From positions 1 to 41,411 of IMG/VR virus record IMGVR_UViG_3300048907_000031: a DNA stretch of 41,411 nucleotides. The stretch is one strand, 5' to 3'. Positions 1,044-38,994 of this stretch are shown here, piece by piece. The DNA comes from a virus. The notes under the pieces were generated by a model. The model was not told where the DNA came from. It searched no databases and saw only the letters and a list, made by a program, of their open reading frames with translations. A program made the position numbers and the translations under genes. Position 1 is the first letter of the stretch; every line of letters begins with the position of its first letter.

Positions 1044-2444
1044 ATGCAAGTTCCGATTGTATCCGGCATTTATACGGATAGCTTGGGCGATTTTCGTACT
1101 AGCTATCCGATTAACCTTATGGTTGTTCCGAAGCAGCAAGGCATATCTGACACTTATCTGCGCCCTGCGGATGGTATTGTTAGCCTCGGAACAGGACCGG
1201 GGCCGGATAGAGGCGGCATTAATTGGGGCGGGGTTTGCTTCCGCGTTATGGGTCAATATCTTTGCCGCGTTAGCTCTGCCGGTTCAATTGAACTGTTAGG
1301 CGACATTAGCGCAGGAACCAGAGCAACACTTGATTACAGCTTTGACCGGCTAGCGCTTTGTTCGGCTAATAAGCTGTATTATTACAATGGTACAACTGTC
1401 AATCAAGTTACTGATGTTAACCTTGGAAATGTTATTAGTTTTATTTGGGTTGACGGTTATTTCATGACTACGGATGGTTCAAGCATTGCTGTTACGAACC
1501 TGGGCGATCCGATGACGGTTAACCCGCTGAAGTATGGCAGTTCTGAAGCGGACCCTGACCCGATTGTGTGTTTGCTTAAGCTTCGGAACGAACCTTACGC
1601 CGTTAATCGCTATACGATTGAAGTCTTTCAGAACGTTGGCGGCCAATTCTTCCCGTTTCAGCGTCTTACAGGTTCGCAGATTATGCGCGGGGCTGTGGGA
1701 ACCTATGCCGCTTGCGTCTTCGATGACGTGATTGCTTTTGTTGGCTCTGGCCGAAATGAGCCACCTTCGGTTTGGCTTGGCGCTTCAGGAACTACGGTTA
1801 AGATAGCTTCGCGTGAGATTGATACAATTCTGCAAGGCTACACGGACGCGCAGCTTGCGGCGATTAGTGTTGATGTTCGCATTGATAAAGGCCACAAGCT
1901 TCTTTATATCCATTTGAACGATAAAACGCTTGTCTACGATGCGAACGCTTCGGCTGCACTCAAGACTAGCGTTTGGGTTATCTTGTCTTCGTCATTAACA
2001 GGTTACGGCGTTTACCGCGCTCGCAACTTCGCTTGGTGCTACGGTAAGTGGATCGTTGGTGATTCGATTGATTCGAGCGTTGGTTATTTCTCCAATACTA
2101 TATCTAATCATTATGGTGATACTGTTGGTTGGGAGTTTAGTACGCAAATCTTCTACAATGCGACGAATGGCTTAATATTCCATGAAATTGAACTTGTGGC
2201 TCTGACGGGAAATGTGGACTTTTCCCTAGACCCGGTTGTCTTTACTAGCTACAGTACAAACGGCGTCTCATGGTCCCAAGAAAGGCCGCGCCGTGTGGGC
2301 AAGTTAGGGCAAAGATCACAGCGCATTAACTGGCTTCAGCAAGGCAATATGCTTAACTGGCGTATTCAGAAGTTTAGAGGCAACTCAGATGCGCGTATTT
2401 CCCCAACCGCTCTTGAATGCAGGGTTGAGCAATTAAATGTTTAG
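1044..2444 (+). CDS. Tail hub / packaged-DNA stabilisation protein, P22 gp10-like
   Basis: 466 aa, against 472 aa for P22 gp10. Recalled similarity includes YPINLMVVP near the N-terminus and HKLLYIHLNDKTLVYDANAS versus P22 HELLIIHLPRHVLVYDASSS. It lies in the tail module. Confidence 0.8.
   Translation: MQVPIVSGIYTDSLGDFRTSYPINLMVVPKQQGISDTYLRPADGIVSLGTGPGPDRGGINWGGVCFRVMGQYLCRVSSAGSIELLGDISAGTRATLDYSFDRLALCSANKLYYYNGTTVNQVTDVNLGNVISFIWVDGYFMTTDGSSIAVTNLGDPMTVNPLKYGSSEADPDPIVCLLKLRNEPYAVNRYTIEVFQNVGGQFFPFQRLTGSQIMRGAVGTYAACVFDDVIAFVGSGRNEPPSVWLGASGTTVKIASREIDTILQGYTDAQLAAISVDVRIDKGHKLLYIHLNDKTLVYDANASAALKTSVWVILSSSLTGYGVYRARNFAWCYGKWIVGDSIDSSVGYFSNTISNHYGDTVGWEFSTQIFYNATNGLIFHEIELVALTGNVDFSLDPVVFTSYSTNGVSWSQERPRRVGKLGQRSQRINWLQQGNMLNWRIQKFRGNSDARISPTALECRVEQLNV
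2293..2301 (+). repeat. GTGTGGGCA motif copy 1
   Basis: Read in ccGTGTGGGCAag. It lies inside the gp10-like CDS, codons cGT GTG GGC Aag (R-V-G-K). Confidence 0.95.
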
Positions 2445-2691
2445 AATCTTAACGAAGATTAACAGACAACAGTATTCCGAATTTACGAATAATCCTCGCA
2501 CTGTAAAACAGTATGAGGATTTATTCTTAGCGGTTGACGCTATCAATGCGGGAACGATTGCGCCGGGTAGCGCCAATATTCCGCAAAATGTTGGTGACAT
2601 GACGTTTGAGGCGACTTCTAACACGGTACTAACCATTCGGCTAATGGGAACCGATGGCGTCGTTCGCTCTGCTACCTTGGGGCTTGTCTAA
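2437..2691 (+). CDS. Hypothetical small tail-module protein (84 aa)
   Basis: ATG 2437 overlaps the gp10-like stop by 8 nt. The ORF ends at the start of the next gene. Confidence 0.65.
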   Translation: MFRILTKINRQQYSEFTNNPRTVKQYEDLFLAVDAINAGTIAPGSANIPQNVGDMTFEATSNTVLTIRLMGTDGVVRSATLGLV

Positions 2692-3113
2692 TGCAATTGG
2701 CCGTCAACGATAAGATTAGCCAGTTTGAAGAATTGCTGTTGCAGCTTCCGCAAGTTTCGACGCCGGTAACGCATGAATTTTGCGATGGGCTTTACGCTCG
2801 CACTATGTTTATTCCGGCTGGCGTCGCGCTAACCGGAGCAATCCATAGAAGCGAAAACTTTCTATTTGTGCGAAGCGGTGAAATTAGCATCATTACTGAC
2901 GAGGGCATGAAGATGGCCGCAGCGGGCGACTTGATTAAATCAGGTGCTGGCGTCAAGCGGGCTGGATTTGCCCACACTGATACGATTATCACAACGGTTC
3001 ACGCGAACCCGTTGAATGAAACTGACGAAGAAACTTTATGGCAAATGTACGTTGTCCCGGATGACGAAGCCTTAGAGTTTAGGAAAACGCTTTTGATTGA
3101 GGTTACGCTATGA
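2691..3113 (+). CDS. Hypothetical protein, possible cupin-like beta-barrel (140 aa)
   Basis: The ORF is coupled to its neighbours (TAATG at 2691, ATGA at 3110). The beta-rich pattern GLYARTMFIPAGVALTGAIHRSENFLFVRSGEISI suggests a cupin fold. That fold assignment is inference only. Confidence 0.7.
   Translation: MQLAVNDKISQFEELLLQLPQVSTPVTHEFCDGLYARTMFIPAGVALTGAIHRSENFLFVRSGEISIITDEGMKMAAAGDLIKSGAGVKRAGFAHTDTIITTVHANPLNETDEETLWQMYVVPDDEALEFRKTLLIEVTL
2969..2977 (-). repeat. GTGTGGGCA motif, the only exact minus-strand copy
   Basis: The + strand reads tgcccacac at 2969-2977. Confidence 0.95.
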
Positions 3114-4057
3114 CTTTTGGATTAAGCGCAGGCGCAATCGGGGGCTTGACTACCGCAGCGGGTGGCATCGGTTCGGCCTTGCTTGGCGGCAATGCGGCGG
3201 GTAAAGCTTCGGCTGCGCAGATGATGGCGGCGCAGGCTGGCGTAGGTGGGGTTAACAATTCGATTAACCAAGCGAACGGCCTGTATCAGAATGATGTTAA
3301 TAATACGAACAACTTGCGTGAGCAAGGCATTAACTCCATAAATGGTTTTTACGGTAACGGCGTCAATAGTGTTAATAGCTATTTTGGCGCAGGCGCTGGG
3401 CAGGCTAATGACAAGCTTGCCCAATTTGCACAGATGATGCAGCCCTATATTAATGGCGGCAATGGCGCGCTGACTGCACAGCAAAACTTGCTTGGCATTA
3501 ACGGAAATGATGCGCAAACTGCGGCTATTAATGGCATTAAGACTAGCGGCCAGTACGACGCGCTTAACGCGCAAGGCCAGGACGCTATCTTGCAAAACGC
3601 TTCAGCTACAGGCGGTTTGCGTGGCGGCAATGTTCAAGGCGCGCTTGCTCAGTTTGCGCCCGCGTTGCTTAACCAAATGATCCAGCAGCAATACGCCAAC
3701 TTGGGTGGCCTTACCTCGATGGGCGCGAACGCGGCTAACAGTGTGGGCAATGCTGGTATTAATACGGGTAACGCAATCCTCGGTGCGGCGAGCAATGCCG
3801 GTAACACTATTGCTAATCTTGGTAGCAATGCTTCGTCCAATGAAAACGCGCTTAATCTAGGAACGATGCAGCAACTTAACAACCTTGGCATTAACCTATC
3901 TAATACGAGCATGAACGGCGCGCAGCTTATTAGCGGTTTGCTTAACCAATCCGGCGCAGCGCAGGCCGGTGGCGCATTGGCGCAGGGCAAGGCGCAGCAG
4001 AACGGGCTTAACTCTATCTTCCAGGGCCTTGGCTCTTGGCTTGGGGGCGGTAAATAA
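3110..4057 (+). CDS. Gly/Asn/Ala/Gln-rich internal virion (ejection-type) protein, 315 aa
   Basis: The position corresponds to the P22 ejection-protein block. It has a hydrophobic Gly-rich N-terminus (GLSAGAIGGLTTAAGGIGSALLGG) and low-complexity N/G/A repeats. ATGA and TAATG coupling occurs at its two ends. Confidence 0.75.
   Translation: MTFGLSAGAIGGLTTAAGGIGSALLGGNAAGKASAAQMMAAQAGVGGVNNSINQANGLYQNDVNNTNNLREQGINSINGFYGNGVNSVNSYFGAGAGQANDKLAQFAQMMQPYINGGNGALTAQQNLLGINGNDAQTAAINGIKTSGQYDALNAQGQDAILQNASATGGLRGGNVQGALAQFAPALLNQMIQQQYANLGGLTSMGANAANSVGNAGINTGNAILGAASNAGNTIANLGSNASSNENALNLGTMQQLNNLGINLSNTSMNGAQLISGLLNQSGAAQAGGALAQGKAQQNGLNSIFQGLGSWLGGGK
3741..3749 (+). repeat. GTGTGGGCA motif copy 2
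   Basis: Read in acaGTGTGGGCAat, codons aGT GTG GGC Aat (S-V-G-N). Confidence 0.95.
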
Positions 4058-5415
4058 TGGCCGGTGCAATTGGACCTATCGACTATTCGACGGGCGCAGA
4101 TAGCCCTTTGGCGGCCTTTAATCAGGGCTTTCAGAGCGCGGCTAATGTTGTCCAAACCCAACAGGCGCAGCAACAGGCGCAGCTTGCGCTTAACACGCAA
4201 CAGCAAATGAGCCGCGACGTTGCGCAAGTTTCGCAGAACCCTACGCCGCAGGCTATTGCGCAGCTTGCGGTAAAGTACCCCTCGCTTTCCGAGCATTTCG
4301 GGAAGTCTTTTAGCATGGTTGACCAAGCGCAAAAAGACCAAAGGCTTAACGCTGCGGTTCCGATCTACGCCGCAGTCAATAGCGATAATCCTGACGTTGC
4401 CATTAACTTGCTGAATAAGCAGGCCGACGCTTTGGAGGCCGCAGGAAAGACGCAAGAGGCGCAGTCCTCGCGTGATATGGCGAAGCTTGTCCAATCCAAC
4501 CCACAGGCCGCCAAGCTTAACATGGGCTTGGCTTTGGCCGCTGTTGGTGGCACGGACAAGTTTTCTTCGATGTTCCCGGCTGTCGGGAAAGAAGCGCGTG
4601 ATAATGCGCTTGCTCCTGCGACCGTGGCGAAAGCTGGCGCTGAAGCGACCAAGGCGCAGGCCGAAGCCGCTGTTGCCCCGCAAGCCGCCGTCCTGGCTAA
4701 CCGCAATATTCAAAGCCAGATCGCGGAACGGAGCGCGCGGCTTGGTTTGGATCAAGACAAGCTGACTTCTGAAATGCAAGTCAAAATGGAGGAATTGAAA
4801 GTTAAGCAGGGGCTTAACGCACTTCCTGACGCACGAAAGCTTGTTAACGATTCGGTTCAATCTTCTGTTCTGTCAAATGCTACAGCTGAAAAATATAACA
4901 CCTTGGCCAATGGTTTGGAGCAAGCCGGGACGCAAGGCAACTTCGCGGGGCGCGGTTGGGATGCTTTTCGCTCCATGACGGGCATTGACGGCGGCAATGA
5001 ACTTAAAAACTTGAAGATGGAATTTAACCGGCTTCGGGCGCAAGGTTTGGCCACGTCTATGCCGGGTGTTACCCGAATGACTGACAATGATATTAAGATC
5101 GCCTCTAAGGGCTTCCCCGATGCTGACGCGCCTTTGGCTCAGGTTACGGGCTTCCTTCGGGGCGTTGCAAAAATGCAACAGATTGACGCCGCGACCAATG
5201 CCATGAAAGCCGATTGGGCTAACTCAGTCGGAAGCTTGGGCAAGCCGAAGCAGGATATTAATGTCCAAGGCGTCACGGTTCAGGCTGGAATGAACTTCGC
5301 GGACTTTCAAAAGCAGTTTGTTGGAAGCATCGTAAACAAGTTTTCTCAACAGGCCAATACGAAAACTGTTCAAGAGCGCGACTATATGCAACACGCCAAC
5401 CCGGAAGCGCAATAA
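4057..5415 (+). CDS. Internal virion / ejection protein, 452 aa
   Basis: A long ORF coupled by TAATG at both ends. It is Q/A-rich with predicted coiled regions. The call rests on its position between the other ejection-type proteins. Confidence 0.75.
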   Translation: MAGAIGPIDYSTGADSPLAAFNQGFQSAANVVQTQQAQQQAQLALNTQQQMSRDVAQVSQNPTPQAIAQLAVKYPSLSEHFGKSFSMVDQAQKDQRLNAAVPIYAAVNSDNPDVAINLLNKQADALEAAGKTQEAQSSRDMAKLVQSNPQAAKLNMGLALAAVGGTDKFSSMFPAVGKEARDNALAPATVAKAGAEATKAQAEAAVAPQAAVLANRNIQSQIAERSARLGLDQDKLTSEMQVKMEELKVKQGLNALPDARKLVNDSVQSSVLSNATAEKYNTLANGLEQAGTQGNFAGRGWDAFRSMTGIDGGNELKNLKMEFNRLRAQGLATSMPGVTRMTDNDIKIASKGFPDADAPLAQVTGFLRGVAKMQQIDAATNAMKADWANSVGSLGKPKQDINVQGVTVQAGMNFADFQKQFVGSIVNKFSQQANTKTVQERDYMQHANPEAQ

Positions 5416-8400
5416 TGGCTAATGTCGGAACCGCCAAAGATACCGGAAACGAACTTTATACCCTTGCGTCTGTTATTCAGGGCGAAGCCGGGGGCGAAGG
5501 CCCTGAGGGGATGAAAGCTGTTGCCTCTGTTATCAAGAATAGAGCGGACAATAACTTTAACAATCTTGGTTCTGATCCGGTTGCGCAGGCTACGGCAAAA
5601 TCGCAATTTAATGGCCAATCGAAGCCGAGCAATGCGGCCTTGGTTACGGCTGCGCAATTGTTGAGCGGAAAGCTTGAAGACAATACAAGCGGCGCGTTGT
5701 TTTTTGCCAACCCTTCGGCGTCTTCGGCTAAATGGGCTAAGAACCTGAGTGAAGACAATTCGCTTAAGATTGGCAACCATTACTTTACCGATAATGTCGC
5801 GGGCGTTCCGTTCACGGCTTCCGGTAGTGTGGGCAAAGAAGGCCCTAGCACTTTCGACAAAGTTTCACAGCAAGCCGCAGCCATTGCACCTAATCAACTT
5901 GCGCAAGTTTATCAGGCGTATAAATCCGGTTCTATGGCTCCTGCGGATAGGGCGCAGTTTGAACATGATGTTAATAGCGGCTTGGTTATGCTTCCGCAAG
6001 GCGCTTCGCTCGAAACGAAGGCCAAAACGCCGCATCCTGATTCAGCGGTTGAATTGCCGCAGCCCGTAATTGAAGCCTACAACAAGGCCGCTGCGGACCC
6101 GTATAACCAAAGCCTTATGCCTGTCAATCAGCGCCAGCAACTCGACGCCGATTTGAAGAATGGAATTGTTAAACTTCCGCAGGGCGCTACGCTTAATCAA
6201 ACCTATCCGAGCATCGTTGACAAAGCTAAGGAAATGGTTACAGGCGAAGGTCGTTCGACGCCTATGTCGAAGCAATTGCCTGAAATTACAGAAGGTAATC
6301 CGCACGGCGCTTTGCTTGAAGGCGTAAGCCCCGAAAAGGGTTTGCTTATGTCTTCGGCGCTGTTGACAGCCACAGACCCTAATCAGATGGCGGAGATTCT
6401 TAAGAATGGTTCGCCCAACATTCGTATTACCCGCGATGACCATGGCAATATTTATGCGGCCAATACTGCGAATGGCGCGGAGTTTGTCTTAAATCGCCCC
6501 GGCTTGTCCAAGATGGATATTTTGCAGGGCATTGGCCTTGGCGCGGCGTTCACGCCTGCGGCGAAGGCTGCGACCATTGGTGGCGCGGCTCTGGCGTCCG
6601 GTGCGACGCAAGCGGCTATTGAGGCCTCCCATGCGGCGGCGGGCGGCTCTGCGGACCTAATGGCTATTCCTGTGGCTGCTGCGACGGGCGGCGCGGTTCC
6701 GGCTGTCGTCAATACCGTGCGGGCGGCTGCGGCCCCTGCGAAGGCGCTCTTGAACAGCGCGCTAGGTCGTGAGGCTGCGCCCCTGGCGGAAACGGTTGCC
6801 GAAGGGGCCGCGCCTGAAGCCGCTGCGGCAGTTGCTCCTAAGCCTGTTGCCCCCGAAGCGGCCCCGGTTGCGGCGGAAGTGAAACCGGCTGTGCAAGATG
6901 CCGCGCCAGCGCCCAACCAAACCTTTAGCGAATTGACGCAAACGACGAAGAAAGCAGCCGAAGGCGACAACCGCGCCGTTAAAATTCTGACGGGTGAAAC
7001 GTCGCCTAATGCTGAGACGCTGCAAAGCGCCAAGGAACTTGGCGTAGAGCATTTGCTTGACCCGGATCATGTCACAACTAACCAAGCGTTCCGTGAAATT
7101 GCGCAAGGCGTAAAGTCGTTTCCCGGTTCGGAAGCTAGAGCGCAGGAAGCTACCAATCTTAAACAGGTTGCGGCTAGGGCCGATAAGCTTGTCGAAGAAT
7201 TGGGCGGAACGCATGACTTAAGCCAGCTTTCGGGCGATGTTAAGTCTAGCCTTAACGCAACGCAACAGGAACTCGATAAGCAGGCGGAACAGCTTTACGG
7301 AAAGCTTCATGCTAATATTCCGGCGAAAGCGCCTGTTGAGGCGAACAACGTCCTAGACTTTGTGAAGCAGCGTGCGGACGAATTGGGCGGCGCGCAGAAC
7401 CTTTCGCCTATGGAAAAGCAAATTCTGGCGAAGCTTGGGCCGAAGGCTGAAAAGGCTGCGGAAGTCGCGCTTCCGGCTGAAGGCTCGCGTTTGACGGCGC
7501 AGGATTATCAGAACCTAATCAAAGCCAAGAATGCGGCGGCAACCGGCGCAACGTCAACCAAAATGCCCACATACGCGCTGCTTGACGATGTTCGCAGGGA
7601 TATAGGCAGCGGCCTAAAAAATGCTGGCCCGTTTAAAGATGAAGACATTGGGCTGAAGAAAAAGCTTTATAGCCTCATTAGCGAAGATCAAGCGAACGTC
7701 GCCGCACAGCATGGCATGGGCGATACGTTTACCGCTGCAAAACAGGCTGTTCAGGTTCGCAAGGGCATTGAAAACGATCTTACGAACTTGTTTGGCAAGC
7801 ATCTTGATGCGTCAATGGTCCAAAGCGTTAATTCCGCAATGGGCGCATTGGTCAAGGGCGACAATAATCAGCTTATCAATCTGCTTAAGAGCGTTCCGGC
7901 GAATATGCGGCAAAGCGTTGTAGCTTCAGGCCTAAATATGGCTTTCGGGCGAAGCGCAGCTAGGCAGGAGTTAAGCTTCACACATTTCGCGAAATGGTAT
8001 GAAGGCCTAGCCAAAAACAAGCAATCGTTTAACGCAGTTATGTCGAACCTTCCGCCTGAAGCTACGCGCCAGCTTCAGAACCTTTACAACGTCTCCAAGG
8101 GTATTAGCCAAGCTACCGGGCAGAAAATCGCTACGGGCCGCTTGGCTGAAATCCGCAAAGCGTTTGAAGGGCAGGCTGACGGGCTGCTAGACAAGCTTTA
8201 TTCCGTCGCCAACAAGGCAGGGAAGGGCTTCGCGCTTGAGGCCGCCACGTCAGCCCTAGGGATGCACGGCGCAGGCATAGGGGCCGCCCTGACTTCGGCG
8301 CTAGTCGGCGGCAAGACGAACGCCCTGAAGGCGGCTGACGCGCTCCTAGCGTCGCCTGATTTCCGCGCCGCCGCGATGGCTGGCGCTTCCGGCGATACGA

Positions 8401-8549
8401 AGGCCGCAGCGCAGAAAATCGCTTACTCCAAGCCGTTCCTTCAATTTGTCCGAAGTGTGGGCAATCCGCGCGAAATGACGAACAAAGAACAATGGGTTAT
8501 GAAGGCTTTGCAGAAGCGCAATCAAAGCAGGAACGAGGATAAGAAATAA
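5415..8549 (+). CDS. Large internal virion / ejection protein with N-terminal SleB-type cell-wall hydrolase domain, 1044 aa
   Basis: The N-terminus LASVIQGEAGGEGPEGMKAVASVIKNRADN...SQFNG...GALFFANP matches the SleB/CwlJ (Hydrolase_2) signature (recalled). A long Ala/Pro linker follows at ~aa 420-500. Size and position are typical of podovirus ejection proteins. Confidence 0.8.
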   Translation: MANVGTAKDTGNELYTLASVIQGEAGGEGPEGMKAVASVIKNRADNNFNNLGSDPVAQATAKSQFNGQSKPSNAALVTAAQLLSGKLEDNTSGALFFANPSASSAKWAKNLSEDNSLKIGNHYFTDNVAGVPFTASGSVGKEGPSTFDKVSQQAAAIAPNQLAQVYQAYKSGSMAPADRAQFEHDVNSGLVMLPQGASLETKAKTPHPDSAVELPQPVIEAYNKAAADPYNQSLMPVNQRQQLDADLKNGIVKLPQGATLNQTYPSIVDKAKEMVTGEGRSTPMSKQLPEITEGNPHGALLEGVSPEKGLLMSSALLTATDPNQMAEILKNGSPNIRITRDDHGNIYAANTANGAEFVLNRPGLSKMDILQGIGLGAAFTPAAKAATIGGAALASGATQAAIEASHAAAGGSADLMAIPVAAATGGAVPAVVNTVRAAAAPAKALLNSALGREAAPLAETVAEGAAPEAAAAVAPKPVAPEAAPVAAEVKPAVQDAAPAPNQTFSELTQTTKKAAEGDNRAVKILTGETSPNAETLQSAKELGVEHLLDPDHVTTNQAFREIAQGVKSFPGSEARAQEATNLKQVAARADKLVEELGGTHDLSQLSGDVKSSLNATQQELDKQAEQLYGKLHANIPAKAPVEANNVLDFVKQRADELGGAQNLSPMEKQILAKLGPKAEKAAEVALPAEGSRLTAQDYQNLIKAKNAAATGATSTKMPTYALLDDVRRDIGSGLKNAGPFKDEDIGLKKKLYSLISEDQANVAAQHGMGDTFTAAKQAVQVRKGIENDLTNLFGKHLDASMVQSVNSAMGALVKGDNNQLINLLKSVPANMRQSVVASGLNMAFGRSAARQELSFTHFAKWYEGLAKNKQSFNAVMSNLPPEATRQLQNLYNVSKGISQATGQKIATGRLAEIRKAFEGQADGLLDKLYSVANKAGKGFALEAATSALGMHGAGIGAALTSALVGGKTNALKAADALLASPDFRAAAMAGASGDTKAAAQKIAYSKPFLQFVRSVGNPREMTNKEQWVMKALQKRNQSRNEDKK
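5827..5835 (+). repeat. GTGTGGGCA motif copy 3
   Basis: Read in gtaGTGTGGGCAaa, codons aGT GTG GGC Aaa (S-V-G-K). Confidence 0.95.
8455..8463 (+). repeat. GTGTGGGCA motif copy 4
   Basis: Read in gaaGTGTGGGCAat, codons aGT GTG GGC Aat (S-V-G-N), 86 nt before the gene end. Confidence 0.95.
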
Positions 8550-10894: not shown

Positions 10895-11077
10895 TTAGTT
10901 ATACCCTTCGCCGCAAACTTTGTCAAGTGGCCCCCGAATTAATTTTGCATACCGCATTGCGGCTGATTTAGTGCGAAAGCTAAAGACATATTCGCCCATG
11001 CGGCAAACGCGCCATTGCCCACGCTTGACCATGCGAACATGAATGCGGTTTAGGGGGCAGATTATAAATTCAGGCAT
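10895..11077 (-). CDS. Hypothetical protein (60 aa)
   Basis: A TAATG overlap links it to the polymerase stop at 11077. It fills the gap in the operon. Confidence 0.6.
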   Translation of the reverse strand: MPEFIICPLNRIHVRMVKRGQWRVCRMGEYVFSFRTKSAAMRYAKLIRGPLDKVCGEGYN

Positions 11078-17054: not shown

Positions 17055-17066
17055 AATTGATCTGGA

Positions 17067-19761: not shown

Positions 19762-19765
19762 GCTA

Positions 19766-23282: not shown

Positions 23283-23329
23283 CGAATTTGCCGGTTGATA
23301 TAACCGAAGCATGGAGCCTAGAAAGAAGA

Positions 23330-24315: not shown

Positions 24316-24324
24316 GTGTGGGCA
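24316..24324 (+). repeat. GTGTGGGCA motif copy 5 (intergenic)
   Basis: Read in cTAATGTGTGGGCAAACt. It starts 2 nt after the stop at 24314 and lies 22 nt before ATG 24346. Confidence 0.95.
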
Positions 24325-28278: not shown

Positions 28279-28316
28279 CCTGTATCTTTATTCCTAAATA
28301 AAGGATCGGGAAACCA

Positions 28317-28613
28317 ATGACTGTTAAAGCACCATTCCAGCCGCGCTATGGCCAAGGCCAGACTATGACTTCGGCGGCTGCTTCGGCGGCTGTTACGATT
28401 GATGCGCAGGCTAAGAGCGTTCAAGTCACCAATACCGGGGCAAATCCTGCTTACTTCCGCATTAGCAATTCTGCGGCTGCGGCTGTTGCTGCGGATTGCA
28501 TCATCCTCGCCGGAACGCAAGTTACTGTGTCGAAGGGTGACGGGGATAATTCGTTTGCCCACATTTCGCCACTCGGAACGACGCTTAACGTGATTACTGG
28601 CGAAGGGTTCTAA
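28317..28613 (+). CDS. Hypothetical small beta-rich protein (98 aa), first gene of the insulated cassette
   Basis: ATG 28317 follows AAAGGA. Track ORF. It ends 2 nt before the next gene. Confidence 0.65.
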   Translation: MTVKAPFQPRYGQGQTMTSAAASAAVTIDAQAKSVQVTNTGANPAYFRISNSAAAAVAADCIILAGTQVTVSKGDGDNSFAHISPLGTTLNVITGEGF

Positions 28614-30196: not shown

Positions 30197-30409
30197 ATGT
30201 CAGCCTTCCAGGAATTTGCGCCGCTAAACCTCAAGCTGATTGTCTATGACACACAAAGCGGCGAAGCCATTCGGGAGCATTTGATTGATTATAATTCGCC
30301 GCAAACGCGCCGCTGGCTTATGCGGGTGACACTGTGGGCAACCTATAATCACAAATCAATCGAACTTATCAACGTGAATGATGATAAGACTGTTGACAGA
30401 CCCGAATGA
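30197..30409 (+). CDS. Hypothetical protein (70 aa)
   Basis: ATG 30197 follows GGAG. It is in frame with track ORF 30140..30409. Confidence 0.6.
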   Translation: MSAFQEFAPLNLKLIVYDTQSGEAIREHLIDYNSPQTRRWLMRVTLWATYNHKSIELINVNDDKTVDRPE

Positions 30410-31194
30410 TTGCCATAAGTTCAAATCGTCAAACAAAGCGCGCCCGCGCTAACCGAACAGAAAGCGTTATCAAAATGGCCAAGGCGTCGAAAGTTACGAA
30501 AATTGTTGAAACCCCCGCTCCTGCGATTGACAATGCGAAGCTTTCGCTTATTGTCGCCGCTACCGTCGCAAACGGCTTCACTTATGAAGATACGGGCGAA
30601 GCGAACATTCAGAACCTGCTTGTTGCGGGGCTGATTGAAACCAATGCGGCTATGGCCGATGAAAATGGAAACGTTGCGACCCGCGCAACCGTCAAAGGAA
30701 TTGAAACTGTGAACGCCACTGTTACCGAAACCGCTCCGCAGCCTGAAATCGCTCCGGCTGTTGTCCAGGCTGCTACCGCCGCCCCTAAGGCTACTACGTC
30801 CTTCGCCATTCGTTCGGACATTCCGGTCCCGACCATCAAGCGCGGCGGCGCGGGCCGCGCTGTCGGCTTCCCGTTCGACCTTCTGGAACCGGGCCAGTCT
30901 TTCCACGTTCCTGCCACTGCGGAACGCCCGGAGCCTGCCAAGTCGCTTGCTTCGACTGTTTCGACGGCTAACGCGAAGTATGCCAAGGAAACTGGCGAAA
31001 GTGAGGAAGTGACGGTTCCGAAATACCAGCTTGACGCCGAAGGCAAGCGCGTGAAGGTTGACGGCCATTTCGTCAAGCTTGGTGATGAAACCATTACCCG
31101 CAAAAAGACGGTTCAGGAGCGCGAATTTGTCGCGCGTTCGGTTGATGCTTCGGACCCGGATGGCATCGGGGCGCGTATCTTCCGCCTTCGCTGA
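30406..31194 (+). CDS. Hypothetical protein with an A/T/P linker and a conserved-looking C-terminal domain, 262 aa (or 239 aa from ATG 30475)
   Basis: ATGA coupling at 30406. The motif SDIPVPTIKRGGAGRAVGFPFDLLEPGQSFHVP looks like a recurrent phage motif, but I cannot place it in a family. Confidence 0.65.
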   Translation: MIAISSNRQTKRARANRTESVIKMAKASKVTKIVETPAPAIDNAKLSLIVAATVANGFTYEDTGEANIQNLLVAGLIETNAAMADENGNVATRATVKGIETVNATVTETAPQPEIAPAVVQAATAAPKATTSFAIRSDIPVPTIKRGGAGRAVGFPFDLLEPGQSFHVPATAERPEPAKSLASTVSTANAKYAKETGESEEVTVPKYQLDAEGKRVKVDGHFVKLGDETITRKKTVQEREFVARSVDASDPDGIGARIFRLR

Positions 31195-31306: not shown

Positions 31307-31810
31307 ATGTCGATTTATCTTTGGCCGCATGAAGACGTTCAAAGCTTGAACGCATTTTACGGTGATCCTCGCGGAAGCAATGGCGAAGCAAGCCCCATAT
31401 GGGAAGCGGACAACCTTCGTTATTGGGAGCCGCCTTACCCGCTGTTCTTTAGCGATGGGAAGCATACGCCCTTGAAGCGTTTGCGCATTCATAAGAAGTG
31501 CGTTTCAACTTTTGACGAAGCTTTCAAGGAAGTTTTGCATGTTTTTGGGATTGACTATATCGTTAAGAACCGGCTTAACATATCAGGCGGTGCAACCTGT
31601 TATAGATTGGAGCGCGGCGGCTCCCGTCTTTCTGTTCACTCTTGGGGTTGCGCTATTGATATGGACCCTGCCCACAATCCTTTCCCGGCGCATTGGAGGA
31701 CCGGAATGATTGACAAAGGCTTTGCCGCTATTATGCAGAAGCATGGCTTTTGCTGGCGCGGCGAAGGTAATGACGTGGACCCTATGCACTTTCAACTCTG
31801 CAAACACTAA
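31307..31810 (+). CDS. Endolysin, peptidase M15 (VanY / L-alanyl-D-glutamate peptidase-like), 167 aa
   Basis: The zinc-ligand pattern is SVHSWGCAIDMD ... DPMHFQL (H-x6-D ... H). Confidence 0.8.
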   Translation: MSIYLWPHEDVQSLNAFYGDPRGSNGEASPIWEADNLRYWEPPYPLFFSDGKHTPLKRLRIHKKCVSTFDEAFKEVLHVFGIDYIVKNRLNISGGATCYRLERGGSRLSVHSWGCAIDMDPAHNPFPAHWRTGMIDKGFAAIMQKHGFCWRGEGNDVDPMHFQLCKH

Positions 31811-32237: not shown

Positions 32238-32361
32238 CGCGGCGGCCTGTATTTCGCTGAGCGAGATTCAATATTCTCGCAAGGATACGGAACAAACCAT
32301 CCGTCAAATCGTTGGGGCTAATGCGGCCCTGGCCTCTTTGTGTGGGCATGGCGCGAAATGA
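32143..32361 (+). CDS. o-spanin (Rz1-like lipoprotein), 72 aa, overlapping the i-spanin in another frame
   Basis: MRLKHAITLCVLSAPLAGC gives a signal peptide with the lipobox LAGC. It starts inside the i-spanin gene and extends beyond it (the overlapped architecture). Confidence 0.6.
   Translation: MRLKHAITLCVLSAPLAGCLSTYNQTPIAVISAAACISLSEIQYSRKDTEQTIRQIVGANAALASLCGHGAK
32340..32348 (+). repeat. GTGTGGGCA motif copy 7
   Basis: Read in cTTTGTGTGGGCATGGc, 10 nt before the o-spanin stop and 9 nt before ATG 32358. Confidence 0.95.
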
Positions 32362-32682: not shown

Positions 32683-33072
32683 ATGTGGTCTAGCGAGCAA
32701 ACCGAAAAAGATAGATTTGCCTTTGAATGGCTCCGTGAACCGGACGCCTTCAAGGCTGCTTTGGCTATTACTGGCGAAGGTAACGCGGGCCGCGCGTTGC
32801 TGTTTGCGTCCGAATGGATCAAAGACCCTTACGTTATTAATAAGAAAAAAGAATTAATAGACGAACAGGGCGAAGAAAGCTTTCTTCCGGCTAAAGCCGA
32901 AATCGCACGCAAAATCCTAGCAGTTCACGATGAAACATTGGATAAAGAAACAAAGCTTAAGGCTTTGCGTCTCTATAGCGAAGTGCTGGGCTATATCACA
33001 AAGCCGGGGGAGGGCAAGGATAAGGGCGCAGGGTTTACGATGAATTTAACTGCTACGGATGTTGCGCTATGA
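32683..33072 (+). CDS. Terminase small subunit candidate, 129 aa
   Basis: It lies immediately upstream of, and is ATGA-coupled to, the large terminase. Its size and helical character fit. No diagnostic motif was seen. Confidence 0.55.
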   Translation: MWSSEQTEKDRFAFEWLREPDAFKAALAITGEGNAGRALLFASEWIKDPYVINKKKELIDEQGEESFLPAKAEIARKILAVHDETLDKETKLKALRLYSEVLGYITKPGEGKDKGAGFTMNLTATDVAL

Positions 33073-34409
33073 TGCATTTCACGCCGAAGCAGCTAGAAGC
33101 GCAGCAAGTTCTAACCGTCGATTCGGCTGTTTATTGCATGTTGTTCGGCGGCTCGCGTTCAGGCAAGACTTTCTTGCTTGTTCGCAATGTCATCATGCGC
33201 GCTATCAAAGCCCCCGGCTCACGTCATTGCATCCTGCGCTTTCGCTTTAACCATATCAAATCGGCTATTATCTTCGATACCTTTCCGAAGGTTATGCGTA
33301 TTTGCTTTCCCGATTTAGTTTACAAGTTAGACCGGGTTGATTGGTTTGCTAAGCTTCCGAATGGCTCCGAAATTTGGTTCGGCGGGTTGGACGATAAAGC
33401 CAGAACTGAAAAAATCCTCGGTAACGAGTATTCGACTATTTATCTTAACGAGTGTTCGCAAATCTCTTGGGGCGCTTACGGCATGGTCGTTACGCGCCTT
33501 GCCCAAAAGATTATGCAAAGCATTGACGGCAAAGAGCCTGTTGCACTCAAGCCTCGTATTTACTTCGATTGCAATCCGCCAAATAAGCTTCATTGGACAT
33601 ATTTAGTTTTCATTAAGAAAGTTGACCCGGAAACTAAACTTCCTTTGCAGAAGCCGGAAGCCTATGTTTCATGCAAGCTTAACCCGGCTGACAACGCCGA
33701 AAACTTAAGCGACAATTATCTTGAAACCTTGCAAGGTCTTTCGGCTAGATTGCGCCGACGCTTCCTAGATGGCGAATTTGCGGACGCTACGCCCAATGCT
33801 TTGTTTACGGACGAATTGATAGATAGCTGGCGCGTGATAGACGGCAAAATCCCGCCCTTCGTTCGGGTTGTTATTGCTGTCGATCCTTCCGGCGCAGACG
33901 ATACCGATAACGCCGACAATGACGCCATTGGCATCGTCGCGGCGGGGCTGGGCGTGGACGGGAACGCCTACGTGCTGGAAGACTTGACTGTGAAGGCAGG
34001 GCCAGCCACATGGGGCCGCGTGGCCACTACAGCCTATGACCGCCTCCGGGCGAATTGCATCGTCGGAGAGACGAACTACGGCGGCGCGATGGTGCGTCAG
34101 ACCATCCAGATTAGCCGCCCCCGAACGCCGTTTATTGAAGTTCACGCCTCACGCGGTAAGGCGGTGCGTGCGGAGCCGATTAGCGCCTTGTATGAAGAAG
34201 GCAAGGTCAGGCATGTTGGAAACTTCAATGAACTTGAAGAAGAATTAACGGCCTTCACGACTTCCGGCTATGTTGGGGCAAAGTCGCCGAATAGGGCCGA
34301 TGCGCTAGTGTGGGCAATTCACGCGCTGTTTCCTGGCCTCACGCAACCTACCAAGAAACCGAAGATTGAACCTGTTATACCTGTATTTAACCCGATGGGG
34401 CGCATGTAA
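33069..34409 (+). CDS. Terminase large subunit, 446 aa
   Basis: Walker A LFGGSRSGKTF. Walker B-like TIYLNECSQ. The nuclease-domain acidic motif is VIAVDPSGADD. Confidence 0.9.
   Translation: MMHFTPKQLEAQQVLTVDSAVYCMLFGGSRSGKTFLLVRNVIMRAIKAPGSRHCILRFRFNHIKSAIIFDTFPKVMRICFPDLVYKLDRVDWFAKLPNGSEIWFGGLDDKARTEKILGNEYSTIYLNECSQISWGAYGMVVTRLAQKIMQSIDGKEPVALKPRIYFDCNPPNKLHWTYLVFIKKVDPETKLPLQKPEAYVSCKLNPADNAENLSDNYLETLQGLSARLRRRFLDGEFADATPNALFTDELIDSWRVIDGKIPPFVRVVIAVDPSGADDTDNADNDAIGIVAAGLGVDGNAYVLEDLTVKAGPATWGRVATTAYDRLRANCIVGETNYGGAMVRQTIQISRPRTPFIEVHASRGKAVRAEPISALYEEGKVRHVGNFNELEEELTAFTTSGYVGAKSPNRADALVWAIHALFPGLTQPTKKPKIEPVIPVFNPMGRM
34308..34316 (+). repeat. GTGTGGGCA motif copy 8
   Basis: Read in ctaGTGTGGGCAat, in the terminase CDS, codons GTG TGG GCA (V-W-A). 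Confidence 0.95.
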
Positions 34410-36469
34410 TGGCTAAGCTGGATTCCGAAAAGATGAAGAAAATTCATAGCGAAGCTATTGCGGAATTTGGCCGCATTAACGGCGCGCTTCGTGACGAAAG
34501 GTTGCAATGCCTACAGGATAGGCGCTTTTACTCTATTGCTGGCGCGCAATGGGAAGGCCCGTTAGGCGAGCAATTCGAGAATAAACCGAAGTTTGAAGTT
34601 AATAAAATCCATTTGGCGGTTATTCGTATCATTAACGAATATCGCAATAACCGGATTAGCGTTAACTTTGTTCCGAAGGATGGAAGCGACAAACAAACGC
34701 TTTCCGATACGTGTAATGGGCTTTATCGGGCCGACGAACAGGATTCGACGGCAGAGGAAGCTTATGACAATGCTTTCGAGGAAGCAGTAGGCGGCGGCTT
34801 CGGCGCTTGGCGTCTTCGCGCTGAATACGAAGACGACGAAAGTGAAGACGATAAGCAGCGCATTAAGATTGAACCGATCTTTGACGCGGATTCAACCGTA
34901 TTCTTTGACCTTGACGCCAAGCGCCAAGATAAGGCGGATGCAAAGCGTTGTTATGTGCTTACGGCTATGTCGCATGAAGCTTACGAGGAAGAATATGACG
35001 ATAACCCCGCTTCATGGGGTAAGCTTATTCACCAAAGCCAGTTTGATTGGCTAACGCCTGACGTGGTTTATATTGCCGAATATTACGTTATCGAGAAAAC
35101 GACCGAAAAGTTCCTTTTCTTCAAAGGCCTTACTGGCGACGAAAAGAAAGTTAGCGAAGAAGAATACAGTGAAGACACTGAAATGCGCAAGGAACTTAAG
35201 GCAACTGGCTACAAGAAAACCCGCGAGAAAGACATTAAATCGCAGAAAGTTCATAAGTATATTATGAATGGACGCGGCATTATTGAAGATTGCGGCTATA
35301 TTGCGGGCAAGAATATTCCAATTGTTCCGATGTATGGTAAACGCTGGTTTATCGACAATGTAGAGCGTTGTATGGGGCATGTTCGCTTGGCGAAGGATGC
35401 GCAGCGGCTTAAGAATATGCAGCTTTCCAAGCTGGGCGAAATCTCTGCGCTTTCGACGGTTGAAAAGCCTATCTTCAGCCCCGAACAGATGCAAGGCCAC
35501 GCTCTTATGTGGAGCGAAGATAACGTCAAGAATTATCCTTACATGCTTCTTAACTCTATAACCGATGCGAATGGGCAACCTGTACAAAACGGGCCGATTG
35601 GTTATACGAAGGTAGCGACTATTCCGCCCGCAATGGCGGCTTTGCTTCAGATCACCGAGCAAGATATTCAGGATGTACTAGGTAATCAGGAAGCGGGCGA
35701 AGAAATCCAGTCTAATGTAAGCGGCATTGCTATGGAACTTGTGCAAAACAAGCTTGATATGCAGACGTTTATTTATATCTCGAATATGGCCAAGGCGGTT
35801 AAGCGCAGCGGTGAAATCTGGCTTTCAATGGCAAAAGAATTGTTCATTGAAGAAGGCCGCAAGATGAAAACGATTAACGACGCGGGCGAAGTTTCCAATA
35901 CGATTATTGGGCAGAAAGTCGCGAATGATAACGGCGTAGTTGAGACACAAAACGACTTGACAGAGGCCAATTTTGACGTGACCGCCACGCCTGGGCCAAC
36001 AAGCGCCAGCAAACGTGCTGCCACGGTGCGCAGCCTCACCGGCATGATGCAGCTTGCGCAGATGGACCCGCAAACCATGCAAGTGCTGATTGCCATGTCC
36101 ATGCTCAACATGGAAGGCGAGGGTATTCAGGATATTCGCGATTACTTCCGTAAGAAACTTCTACAAATGGGTGTTGTCGCTCCGACTAAGGAAGAAGCGG
36201 CGGAACTTCAGCAGGCCGCAGCCAATCAGCAGCCGGACCCGCAAAGCCAATTCTTGCTTGCTTCGGCAGAACAAGCCAAGGCTGACGCGCTGCTTAAGCA
36301 GGCTAATACGGTCCTTGCTTCGGCCAAGGCGGAACTTACCCACGCACAAGCCGCAGCGGAAATTGCGGGCATTAAGACGGACAAGATTGACCAAACGCTT
36401 AGAGTTATCCAGGCAATGGAGAATAGCGCGGCGCAACCGCAACAAATTCCTGCGCAGACTGCGCAATAA
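34409..36469 (+). CDS. Portal protein, P22 gp1 family, 686 aa
   Basis: Recalled matches to P22 gp1: GAWRLRAEYED vs GAWRLVTDYED; NIPIVPMYG vs HIPIVPVFG; VRLAKDAQRLKNM vs VRLTKDGQRLRNM; NYPYMLLN vs DYPYYLLN; IRDYFRKKLLQMGV vs MRDYANKQLIQMGV. Confidence 0.92.
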   Translation: MAKLDSEKMKKIHSEAIAEFGRINGALRDERLQCLQDRRFYSIAGAQWEGPLGEQFENKPKFEVNKIHLAVIRIINEYRNNRISVNFVPKDGSDKQTLSDTCNGLYRADEQDSTAEEAYDNAFEEAVGGGFGAWRLRAEYEDDESEDDKQRIKIEPIFDADSTVFFDLDAKRQDKADAKRCYVLTAMSHEAYEEEYDDNPASWGKLIHQSQFDWLTPDVVYIAEYYVIEKTTEKFLFFKGLTGDEKKVSEEEYSEDTEMRKELKATGYKKTREKDIKSQKVHKYIMNGRGIIEDCGYIAGKNIPIVPMYGKRWFIDNVERCMGHVRLAKDAQRLKNMQLSKLGEISALSTVEKPIFSPEQMQGHALMWSEDNVKNYPYMLLNSITDANGQPVQNGPIGYTKVATIPPAMAALLQITEQDIQDVLGNQEAGEEIQSNVSGIAMELVQNKLDMQTFIYISNMAKAVKRSGEIWLSMAKELFIEEGRKMKTINDAGEVSNTIIGQKVANDNGVVETQNDLTEANFDVTATPGPTSASKRAATVRSLTGMMQLAQMDPQTMQVLIAMSMLNMEGEGIQDIRDYFRKKLLQMGVVAPTKEEAAELQQAAANQQPDPQSQFLLASAEQAKADALLKQANTVLASAKAELTHAQAAAEIAGIKTDKIDQTLRVIQAMENSAAQPQQIPAQTAQ

Positions 36470-36501: not shown

Positions 36502-36510
36502 GTGTGGGCA
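36502..36510 (+). repeat. GTGTGGGCA motif copy 9 (intergenic, portal-scaffold)
   Basis: Read in gGTTGTGTGGGCATGGt. It shares the 14-nt stretch TTGTGTGGGCATGG with the copy at 32340 and is flanked by ctagg...cctag. Confidence 0.95.
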
Positions 36511-37432: not shown

Positions 37433-38701
37433 ATGGCTAACGTTTTTAACAAAGAAGAAAGAGTTGCCTTCGAGAACATTCTTGAAGGCTTTCAGGATGC
37501 GCTTATCCTTTCCAAAGCTGTTTCGGTTTATAATTCCGATTCGCAGGAAATGGAACGCGCGCTGAATACGATTTGGCGTCCGCAGCCCTACATTTCCATT
37601 TCCTATTCGGGAACGGATATGACTTCTAACTTCACGGATTATACGCAGCTTTCCGTGCCTGCTACCCTCGGCTTCAGCCGTTCGGTTCCTTGGGTGCTGA
37701 CCGCTACGGAACTTCGTGACGCGCTTCAGGAACAGCGCCTTGGTCAGGCCGCGAAGCAGAAGCTTGCTTCTGACATTAACGTGGCTGTTTCTAATCTGGC
37801 CGCTACCTCCGGTTCACTGGTCGTCAAGCGCACTGTAGCAGCTACCGGCTTTGATGACGTGGCGCAGGCCGAAGCCATCATGAACGAACAGGGCGTCCAG
37901 TTTGACAACCGCTTCATGGCGCTGAATACCCGTGACTACAACGGCATGGCCAGCAACCTTGCCGCGCGTGGCACGATGACGGGCAAGCCGGTGACGGCGT
38001 ATGAGCGCGCCTACGTTGGGCAGGTTGCTTCGTTTGACACCGTGAAGCTTGATTATGGCTACCGTTTGACGGCGGCGGCTGGCGTCACCGTCGCCATGAA
38101 CGGCGCAAGCCAGTATTACACGCCGAAGGCTTATTCTACGGCGACCACTGGCGAAGTTCAGAACGTTGACAACCGCTACCAGGTTATCACTATTTCTGTA
38201 ACTTCGGGTACGGTTAAGGTGGGTGATTGCTTCACGATTGCGGGCGTGAATGCGGTTCACCACATTACCAAGAATGATACCGGCCAGCTTAAGACCTTCC
38301 GCATTACCGCCATTGTGACGGGTGCGGGTGGTTCAGGTACGGTCCAGATTTCGCCCCCGATTATCTCGAATGGCGGTTCGACTTCGGCTGAAGCTGAATA
38401 CCAGAACGTGACTGCTACCCCGGCCAGCAATGCGCCGATTACCTTCCTGAATACGGTTGCTGCTACCGTCAACCCGTTCTGGCAGAAAGACGCGCTTGAA
38501 ATCCTTCCGGGCCGCTATGCGGTTCCTGAGGATGCGGGTACGGCTGTTATGCGCGCTTCGACTGACCAGGGCATTGAACTGGTTATGCAGAAGTTCTACG
38601 ATATTAACACCATGAAGACTAAGTATCGTCTTGATACGCTTTATGGCGTTGTGAACAAGCAGCCTGAAATGTCCGGTATTATGCTGTTCAATCAGACCTA
38701 A
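37433..38701 (+). CDS. Major capsid protein, P22 gp5-type coat, 422 aa
   Basis: NTIWRP matches P22 NTIWMP. VDNRYQVITISVTSGTVKVGDCFTIAGV matches [27 protein letters not shown] (recalled). Size and position fit. Confidence 0.9.
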   Translation: MANVFNKEERVAFENILEGFQDALILSKAVSVYNSDSQEMERALNTIWRPQPYISISYSGTDMTSNFTDYTQLSVPATLGFSRSVPWVLTATELRDALQEQRLGQAAKQKLASDINVAVSNLAATSGSLVVKRTVAATGFDDVAQAEAIMNEQGVQFDNRFMALNTRDYNGMASNLAARGTMTGKPVTAYERAYVGQVASFDTVKLDYGYRLTAAAGVTVAMNGASQYYTPKAYSTATTGEVQNVDNRYQVITISVTSGTVKVGDCFTIAGVNAVHHITKNDTGQLKTFRITAIVTGAGGSGTVQISPPIISNGGSTSAEAEYQNVTATPASNAPITFLNTVAATVNPFWQKDALEILPGRYAVPEDAGTAVMRASTDQGIELVMQKFYDINTMKTKYRLDTLYGVVNKQPEMSGIMLFNQT

Positions 38702-38745: not shown

Positions 38746-38760
38746 ACGGAGGCTGGTTTA

Positions 38761-38979
38761 ATGGACGAATATCCCAAGATGCTGTTCAAGGCTGGCGGTT
38801 CGCTTGAACTTGCCGAAGGTAAGTTTTCCTTTATCATCGTCAATTCTTCGGAAGAAGAAGACGCCGCTGAAGGTTGGGAAGCTACGCTTGCTGGCGCGCT
38901 CGAACTGGCCAATCCGCAGGCCAATTTGAAATGGGAAGCCCCGTCCAAGGCGAAGAAATCCGCCCCGCCTGTCATCTAA
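38761..38979 (+). CDS. Hypothetical head-module protein (72 aa)
   Basis: ATG 38761 follows GGAGG. It starts with the YPKMLFK-type N-terminus seen in many small phage proteins near capsid genes (recalled). Confidence 0.65.
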   Translation: MDEYPKMLFKAGGSLELAEGKFSFIIVNSSEEEDAAEGWEATLAGALELANPQANLKWEAPSKAKKSAPPVI

Positions 38980-38985
38980 CTAGGA

Positions 38986-38994
38986 GTGTGGGCA
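38986..38994 (+). repeat. GTGTGGGCA motif copy 10 (between SD and start codon)
   Basis: Read in ctAGGAGTGTGGGCAtATG. The motif begins at the last G of the AGGAG SD and ends 1 nt before ATG 38996. Confidence 0.95.

Follow-up and report, generated by a model that had tools for sequence, protein, structure and literature searches.

Sites recognized by primases are an established class of genetic element, and the 8-nt specificity of the primase-polymerase of phage NrS-1 has been published. De novo synthesis by the NrS-1 enzyme depends largely on one 8-nt recognition sequence, counted in two copies genome-wide; still higher efficiency is obtained with 5'-GTGG-3' and 5'-GTGA-3', synthesis begins with the base immediately 5' of the site, and the site is bound by the helix-bundle domain (HBD) of the enzyme, as is the case for pRN1 ORF904, which reads GTG (PMC7102993, PMC8718748). 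The gp4 primase of phage T7 recognizes 5'-(G/T)2GTC-3' plus flanking bases, and the 40-kb T7 genome has been proposed to contain about 26 strong sites for priming, alternatively counted as 14 groups at distances of 1-6 kb (PMC12839067). Here we analyze the IMG/VR virus record IMGVR_UViG_3300048907_000031, a complete JGI metagenome contig of 41,411 bp with the structural module of a P22-like podovirus (the whole stretch is referred to as the window), in which the 9-mer GTGTGGGCA and its 8-nt core TGTGGGCA (the motif) recur throughout the genome. Sequence comparison suggests that TGTGGGCA probably serves the NrS-1-type archaeo-eukaryotic primase-polymerase/helicase of the phage itself as a template recognition site dispersed over the genome.

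The window resembles the NrS-1 and pRN1 systems in that its primase is homologous and has the same HBD, and in that the motif comprises eight nucleotides including GTGG. It contains the GTG(G/A) core as T-GTGG-GCA, and the A/T-rich bases on its 5' side are consistent with synthesis starting immediately 5' of it. In the NrS-1 genome itself, the enriched word AAGTGTAAC(C) occurs in 11 copies and in both orientations, all at 17062-17370 directly after the primase gene, a region that probably serves as the origin of NrS-1. Within a cluster of AAAAGTGTAACC repeats after the primase gene lies the published site TTTGGTTA, accompanied in the cluster by an adjacent exact copy of TGTGGTCA, the form of the motif found in Queuovirinae (phages NP1 and 033B, see below). 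Unlike NrS-1, a temperate phage in which the sites form an origin-like cluster of about 300 bp by the primase gene, the lytic phages examined carry single dispersed copies, about 20 of them in the window, spread evenly over both strands; furthermore, the word itself differs, and its recognition by the window primase is a prediction. The likeness to T7 gp4 lies in a limited set of strong priming sites throughout a phage genome of roughly 40 kb, at 1-6 kb intervals that match Okazaki sizes. The T7 primase, however, belongs to the TOPRIM/zinc-finger enzymes, which are not related to the NrS-1 type; it recognizes a core of 3-5 nt rather than an over-represented long word, and its sites are partly clustered, even spacing not having been reported for them.

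Abundance, form and spacing of the motif

The 9-mer GTGTGGGCA is found ten times on the + strand of the window and once on the - strand (2969-2977), and all 11 positions agree with those listed in an earlier reading of the DNA made from its letters alone (the sequence-only reading); dinucleotide-preserving shuffles give a mean of 0.24 copies and a maximum of 2. The core TGTGGGCA is present in 14 + and six - copies, so that the earlier + total of 14 is borne out and the - total of 5 was one too low, the copy at 7564-7571 having been missed. Dinucleotide shuffles yield a mean of 1.14 copies of the core, and an order-3 Markov model predicts 0.37 copies per strand (P about 8e-18). In a codon-aware null model, consisting of 2000 permutations of synonymous codons with the four intergenic + copies kept fixed, the mean is 4.8 and the maximum 9 on the + strand (14 observed), and 0.28 and 3, respectively, on the - strand (six observed). 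The over-representation asserted in the sequence-only reading thus stands, the observed counts never being reached in the codon shuffles, and apart from words of the hexamer tandem array at 19503-19760, no 8-mer of the window ranks above TGTGGGCA.

The usual form of the motif in the window is W-G-TGTGGGCA-W, where W is A or T, and W is present on both flanks in ten of the 11 exact copies of GTGTGGGCA, just as had been noted before; additional information around the motif is weak and confined to the 5' side. One-mismatch variants of TGTGGGCA, of which 24 are possible, amount to eight on the + and 14 on the - strand, numbers that we read as background level by inspection rather than from a computed expectation.

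It had been proposed that related phages be searched for the motif, and it proves to be the top word both in a subset of P22-like relatives and in cultured phages. Among 80 IMG/VR relatives compared by their coat protein, TGTGGGCA ranks first among the 8-mers only in a subset (L012, L019, L020, L022, L023, L036 and L041; 36-51% GC), the members of which have in common the DUF7303 gene and a particular terminase, and no comparable word was found in the remainder of the 80. DUF7303 led to cultured siphoviruses with the same replication module, in each of which TGTGGGC(A) is the top word and occupies both strands: copies of TGTGGGCA on the + and - strands number 10/8 in Pseudomonas phage Ab26, 8/12 in Escherichia phage Halfdan, 7/6 in Acinetobacter phage Loki, 11/6 in Rhodobacter phage RcTitan and 15/3 in Sphingomonas phage Kimi, and TGTGGGC is present in 18/8 copies in Achromobacter phage phiAxp-1. 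Queuovirinae have more distant primase homologues (24-35% identity) together with the sister words TGTGGTCA or TGTGGTTA. The former is found in 24/10 copies in NP1 (expected 1.3, P=2e-35), 15/16 in JenP2, 21/23 in AL-2 and 16/4 in Vibrio phage 033B, which also has TGTGGCCA (7/10); SLUR26 has 18/22 copies of TGTGGTTA (P=1e-38), and R7M combines TGTGGTTA (12/13) with TGTGGTCA (11/5).

The form of the last three bases follows the phage and not the host. The Escherichia coli phages Halfdan, SLUR26 and JenP2 have GCA, TTA and TCA, respectively, and the P. aeruginosa phages Ab26 and NP1 have GCA and TCA. Since the variants differ within one host and agree across hosts, the reader of the motif must be encoded by the phage, which excludes every word read by the host, be it a Chi sequence, an uptake sequence or a DnaA box; the earlier suggestion of a binding site for a phage or host protein is accordingly true in a generic sense for a phage protein, but no longer for a host protein. 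The Queuovirinae forms TGTGGTCA and TGTGGTTA contain neither GA nor GGC, and the GCA form includes GGC. GA and GGC are targets of the 7-deazaguanine DNA modification of Queuovirinae (as given in the abstract on phage iggy), and, speculatively, the choice of variant may reflect avoidance of modification inside the site.

On each strand, the spacing of the motif is far more even than random, with gaps of about 2-3.5 kb, which is within the range of Okazaki intervals discussed for T7 (about 1-6 kb). The coefficient of variation (CV) of the gaps is 0.41 for the 14 + copies of the window (P=1e-4), 0.35 for 19 + copies in RcTitan (P<1e-4), 0.35 for 12 - copies in Ab26 (P=4e-4) and 0.21 for 13 - copies in Halfdan (P<1e-4). 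In phage 033B, 23 + copies with a mean gap of 2019 have a CV of 0.23, and 14 - copies one of 0.33 (P<1e-4 for both), and in SLUR26 the values are 0.48 for 18 + copies (P=6e-4) and 0.45 for 22 - copies (P<1e-4).

With respect to strand, the sequence-only reading had stated that + copies persist even in the block of - strand genes, and that the motif is therefore a property of the DNA strand rather than of the mRNA sense. Two + cores (13909 and 17507) do lie in the - gene block at 10.6-20.2 kb, but so do two - copies (16272, and a 7-mer at 12910), and all ten exact + copies of GTGTGGGCA are in + strand gene blocks; with the 9-mers only in + blocks and the - block evenly mixed, the window alone does not separate the two possibilities, and for the window the statement was too strong. 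The relatives nevertheless back a DNA-strand bias, as the excess largely persists within oppositely oriented gene blocks: the ratio of + to - copies within annotated - gene blocks is 4:1 in RcTitan, 11:8 in NP1 and 3:1 in Ab26 (hand tallies). In the biased genomes, i.e., the window, RcTitan, phiAxp-1, NP1, 033B, Kimi and Halfdan, the strand excess parallels the late genes, and in Ab26 14 copies are sense and 14 antisense with respect to transcription (hand tally).

Genes that accompany the motif

The window encodes a 755-residue primase-polymerase/helicase that belongs to PHROG 3022 (E=9e-229) and matches the Pfam families NrS1-1_pol-like_HBD (PF22763; E=1.1e-8, residues 209-260, above the curated cut-off) and DUF3987, and its residues 7-244 match the NrS-1 primase structures 7ola, 7rr4, 6k9a and 6a9w (E about 1e-23). 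This primase is present in every complete motif-bearing genome examined, and motif and primase occur together in 13 cultured phages and eight IMG/VR loci (L098, L103, L109, L114, L115, L117, L118 and L121). In these eight loci, the primases are 45-52% identical, and TGTGGGCA is the top word. They were located by walking out from the VRR-NUC gene of L019, of which L098 is the rest of the contig; a single-protein scan of IMG/VR with the window primase returned no match. In the primase tree, all GCA-type phages fall into a single clade, separate from Queuovirinae.

Two P22-like relatives, L001 and L002, have the helicase (40-42% identity), Cas4-like nuclease (33-35% identity), Sak4 and VRR-NUC in common with the window, but a different primase of repA type; no enriched word was found in these two or in other P22-like relatives lacking the NrS-1-type primase. 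Helicase, Cas4-like nuclease, Sak4 and VRR-NUC are thus not sufficient for the motif. DUF7303, in turn, is not needed for it, because Queuovirinae, in which tblastn finds no DUF7303 (nor does it in NrS-1), still carry the sister words. Kimi has both DUF7303 and the primase; Pseudomonas phage FE013 has DUF7303, and no primase is annotated in the 50 kb retrieved from it, the middle of which consists of tiny hypothetical open reading frames (ORFs), tblastn not having been run for the primase there. A small ORF, helix-turn-helix (HTH)-like in several genomes, is located just upstream of the primase gene in all ten genomes checked. These small ORFs fall into unrelated PHROGs or families, or into none, and therefore fit poorly with a TGTGG core that never changes.

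The closest cultured homologues of the window primase, in Pseudomonas phage PSV3 records, align in three to five tblastn pieces and are annotated as several hypothetical proteins; the PSV3 gene may be interrupted or frameshifted.

Probable template priming and alternative readings

A priming signal was among the functions listed in the sequence-only reading, and it is the best supported one because the motif tracks the NrS-1-type primase gene and holds the GTGG core of this enzyme family. The enrichment of the motif, its even spacing, its independence of the host, its occurrence together with the primase gene and the homology of that primase to the NrS-1 enzyme are established here, whereas the recognition step, the choice of strand and the requirement for all eight bases are inferred. 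In the mechanism that we propose, the helicase would expose single-stranded DNA, the HBD of the primase would read the GTGG-containing word on the template strand, and synthesis would begin at the A/T-rich base or bases immediately 5' of the word. If the full 8-mer is needed for efficient priming, selection would maintain one copy per about 2-3.5 kb per strand, and the genome would thereby encode the possible starts of discontinuous DNA synthesis or replication restart. The + excess (14:6) would then make the + strand the most frequent lagging-strand template, with forks or rolling circles moving mainly along the direction of late transcription.

Several observations weigh against recognition by the primase. 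Sites of both strands are interleaved everywhere, and there is no strand switch at the putative origin, which a simple origin-driven fork model does not predict; recombination-dependent replication or bidirectional forks are required. The interleaving fits forks moving both ways, e.g., in recombination-dependent replication, which is plausible because Sak4, SSB and exonuclease genes are encoded. Even spacing would also suit other translocation-coupled processes and is not specific to priming. In the NrS-1 cluster, TTTGGTTA is on the strand opposite the GTG-containing repeats, and the NrS-1 polymerase primes from GTG alone in vitro, such that a strict need for eight bases is an assumption (PMC8718748). 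The distinction between TCA and TTA is not cleanly matched to the primase tree. Moreover, the co-occurrence is at the level of clades: the clamp-like factor and the DUF669 SSB, for which there is no precedent of sequence reading, have nearly the same distribution as the primase, the presence of DUF7303 coincides without exception with that of the GCA form, and no natural genome was found that separates the primase, DUF7303 and the co-varying genes.

An origin in base composition, codon usage or a repeated peptide is refuted as a source of the counts. A frame preference does exist, GTG GGC (Val-Gly) being the frame of eight of 12 in-gene sense copies and GCC CAC (Ala-His) that of five of seven antisense copies, but the dinucleotide, order-3 Markov and synonymous-codon null models are all exceeded, four of the 21 copies in the window are intergenic, and the same word is enriched in genomes of 36-57% GC (IMG/VR contigs included) with unrelated proteins. 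The 17 copies inside genes occupy several reading frames and have at most two residues in common, with no longer shared peptide, and selection therefore acts on the DNA. A DNA-level signal could also be read in double-stranded form by another phage protein of the module, either DUF7303 or the small HTH protein whose gene precedes that of the primase, and this protein would coat, organize, silence or mark the genome. A loose parallel would be the stoperators of Cluster A mycobacteriophages, i.e., 13-bp asymmetric repressor sites dispersed genome-wide. We consider such a protein unlikely as the reader. DUF7303 is confined to the motif-bearing subset of the P22-like relatives and is present in all cultured GCA-type phages, and its AlphaFold model (pLDDT 82.6) predicts, with high confidence, an N-terminal helix/strand domain (residues about 43-107), a disordered linker and a beta-rich C-terminal domain; the only Foldseek matches of the model are weak (E about 0.3) and to MarR/PadR winged-helix regulators, with no convincing PDB match for the C-terminal domain. 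A small, partly HTH-like ORF likewise precedes the primase gene in the ten genomes. Queuovirinae, however, have the sister words with even more regular spacing in the absence of DUF7303, the small HTH proteins are unrelated while the core is constant, the motif is oriented independently of transcription in Ab26, most window copies are intragenic, and even spacing on each strand is unexpected for simple operator-type sites.

Two further readings, both raised in the sequence-only reading, place the motif in DNA processing rather than in primer synthesis. Sequence-specific single-strand nick sites in virion DNA, as in T5, phiKMV and tf/LUZ24-type phages (TACT/RTGMC, WACTRTGAC) and here made by a phage nickase, have a similar format: a conserved 9-mer in about a dozen copies (about 10-25 per 40-45 kb genome), mostly intragenic and of unknown function, that is conserved across a phage family (PMC11780129; tf annotation). 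The window encodes a VRR-NUC nuclease, and unsealed junctions at fixed priming sites could also show up as nicks. The known nick motifs, however, are strictly one-stranded (14/14 copies in tf and 13/13 in Rembedalsseter), and in tf they are unevenly spaced. In the window, by contrast, the minority strand holds 6-7 of the roughly 21 copies, and in Ab26, Halfdan and SLUR26 the copies are split almost equally between the strands. The nick words are unrelated to the motif, the replication proteins differ, tf having a T7-type DnaB/TOPRIM primase, and VRR-NUC is also present in the motif-less L001 and L002 and was not found by tblastn in the Queuovirinae examined. On sequence grounds, nicking is therefore quite improbable. 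A Chi-like signal that tames a helicase-nuclease and protects linear or rolling-circle DNA would agree with an asymmetric, over-represented and strand-biased 8-mer, traits also found in KOPS and uptake sequences, and with an even spacing suited to a translocating enzyme, and the phage SNF2-type helicase gene does adjoin a RecB/Cas4-family nuclease gene (14534-17016). Chi, KOPS and uptake sequences are properties of host lineages, Chi of E. coli being GCTGGTGG, whereas the motif follows the phage replication module across hosts: the identical word in phages of six host genera and of different classes, and differing words within one host, exclude the version for host RecBCD/AddAB. The version for the phage enzymes is weakened by L001 and L002, which have helicase and nuclease homologues but no enriched word, and as a whole we regard a Chi-like role as highly improbable.

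Other identities were rejected. The motif resembles a DnaA box (TGTGGATAA), the consensus of which is TTWTNCACA, but the reverse complement TTGCCCACA mismatches positions 3 and 4 of the consensus, and the variants follow the phage clade rather than the host. The window DNA methyltransferase has no homologue in other motif-bearing genomes, which speaks against the motif as its target; a packaging signal, also suggested earlier, is dismissed since the terminases of podoviral and siphoviral carriers differ. Promoters, terminators and RNA signals are discounted by copies inside genes on both strands of one-directional operons, and a link to the tf nick motif through a common primase fails because the tf primase is of T7 type. 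Like stoperators, the motif is one asymmetric word in many copies across a phage genome with a phage-encoded reader; stoperators, however, are aligned with transcription, are found mainly between genes and are a feature of temperate phages that have a repressor, whereas orientation here ignores transcription in several genomes, copies are largely intragenic, and no integrase was found, nor a repressor identified, among the window ORFs scanned.

Returning to priming, it is conceivable, though tentative, that discontinuous synthesis is hard-wired in these phages, such that the primase starts essentially only at TGTGG-KYA, with a near-periodic copy per 2-3 kb per strand and with the last three bases co-evolving with the primase clade. 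If true, this would constitute a sequence-programmed map of Okazaki-fragment or restart boundaries common to Septimatrevirus, Lokivirus, Titanvirus, Queuovirinae and P22-like metagenomic phages; to our knowledge, no such priming map has been described for any replicon. Primase start-site choice in vivo and the control of Okazaki-fragment length are still argued even for T7, and the present phages offer a natural experiment with a defined 8-mer in three clade-specific variants, near-periodic on both strands in dozens of cultured phages, several of which infect E. coli K-12 or P. aeruginosa, making the question directly testable. The word also provides a simple metagenome marker for this replication module and could indicate which templates are bound with high affinity by NrS-1-type primase-polymerases, enzymes in use for primer-free DNA synthesis. 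Should the priming reading be wrong, what is left is a genomic word that is deeply conserved, evenly spaced and unexplained, which would be no less interesting.

Literature searches for TGTGGGCA and its complement, TGTGGTCA and TGTGGTTA returned only primer-sequence noise. The paper on the Loki genome is silent on the motif, no description was found in the literature on Queuovirinae and Septimatrevirus, and a near-periodic, two-strand TGTGG-KYA 8-mer family across the five phage groups named above was not found in the searchable literature, the coverage of which is incomplete.

Gene context and individual copies

The copies of the motif and the main genes of the window are collected in Table 1. 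No cultured phage matched the window in a megablast search with 20 kb of it, and as a lead to the host, a contig scan with the capsid protein gave only phage contigs binned into metagenome-assembled genomes.

Table 1 Motif copies, genes and putative origin in the window
Feature	Position	Strand	Remarks
TGTGGGCA	2294-2301	+	9-mer from 2293; gene 1044-2444, sense, frame xxT GTG GGC A
TGTGGGCA	3742-3749	+	9-mer from 3741
TGTGGGCA	5828-5835	+	9-mer from 5827
TGTGGGCA	8456-8463	+	9-mer from 8455
TGTGGGCA	13909-13916	+	8-mer only; antisense to clamp-like gene
TGTGGGCA	17507-17514	+	8-mer only; antisense to SSB gene
TGTGGGCA	22052-22059	+	8-mer only; within primase gene
TGTGGGCA	24317-24324	+	9-mer from 24316; intergenic
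TGTGGGCA	28251-28258	+	9-mer from 28250; loop of terminator-like hairpin
TGTGGGCA	30333-30340	+	8-mer only
TGTGGGCA	32341-32348	+	9-mer from 32340
TGTGGGCA	34309-34316	+	9-mer from 34308; near 3' end of large terminase gene; position kept in L022 and L020
TGTGGGCA	36503-36510	+	9-mer from 36502; intergenic, portal/scaffold gap
TGTGGGCA	38987-38994	+	9-mer from 38986; between GGAG ribosome-binding site and ATG at 38996
TGTGGGCA	2969-2976	-	sole exact 9-mer on - (2969-2977)
TGTGGGCA	7564-7571	-	8-mer
TGTGGGC 7-mer	12910-12916	-	eighth base T; sense to PolA gene
TGTGGGCA	16272-16279	-	8-mer
TGTGGGCA	22421-22428	-	8-mer
TGTGGGCA	28556-28563	-	8-mer
TGTGGGCA	31669-31676	-	8-mer
Ejection proteins	3110-8549		structural module
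PolA	11077-13116	-	replication block
Clamp-like factor	13116-14120	-	replication block
SNF2/DEAD helicase and Cas4-like exonuclease (RecB/Cas4-family nuclease)	14534-17016	-	adjoining genes
DUF669 SSB	17067-17735	-	replication block
Sak4		-	replication block
NrS-1-type primase-polymerase/helicase	20409-22676	+	755 aa; proposed motif reader
Putative replication origin	22651-22929	+	just downstream of primase gene
DNA methyltransferase	23279-24013
VRR-NUC nuclease	24471-24908
DUF7303	30406-31194	+	262 aa; Pfam PF23978, E=6.7e-47; rival candidate reader
Large terminase	33069-34409		structural module
Portal	34409-36469		structural module; scaffold gene adjacent
Coat	37433-38701		structural module

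The assignment of the putative origin rests on the motif-like words CTGTGGTCA (22651-22659), CTGTGGCATAA (22853-22863) and CTGTGACATAA (22872-22882), which are followed by a 40-nt run of 93% A+T at 22890-22929, and on a location that corresponds to that of the repeat cluster in NrS-1. Other repeats with an AT-rich run occupy the equivalent place after the primase gene in phiAxp-1 (GTGTTTTCGG repeats), Vibrio phage 033B and Halfdan; the origin repeats thus differ between phages, and the dispersed word is conserved. The motif itself does not behave as an origin iteron, which would be clustered beside the initiator gene, since its copies are evenly dispersed and only degenerate copies accompany the AT-rich run downstream of the window primase gene.

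In Ab26, Loki, RcTitan and FE013, the early operon ends with the DUF7303 gene or shortly after it, and the lysis and terminase genes follow. In a different phage group, reached by way of the VRR-NUC gene (L130-L174, from IMG/VR sample 3300045988 and others), the top 8-mer is GGCAGCAG, as seen in L146; this word is dispersed and strongly one-stranded, e.g., 19 + and one - copy in 20 kb, and no NrS-1-type primase was found within the fetched stretch.

In the window, TGCGGGCA, which is one transition away from the motif, has three + copies at 23443, 35302 and 36364 with A/T-rich 5' flanks (gaata, tatat and gaaat) that resemble the flanks upstream of the motif in relatives; these may be decayed or weaker sites. 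The hexamer array at 19503-19760 comprises 43 units of AGCCGT with a perfect period and 83% matches, lies within the overlapping - strand ORFs 18912-19796 (DUF7173) and 19492-20178, and explains the remaining top k-mers of the window. The terminator-like hairpin at 28227-28285 reads GCGCCCCTGT ... ACAGGGGCGC followed by TTTTT, with the stem arms at 28227-28236 and 28260-28269 and a copy of the motif in the loop, and in phage Loki the stem of an annotated terminator (L091, 9527-9563) is formed by two inverted copies of the motif.

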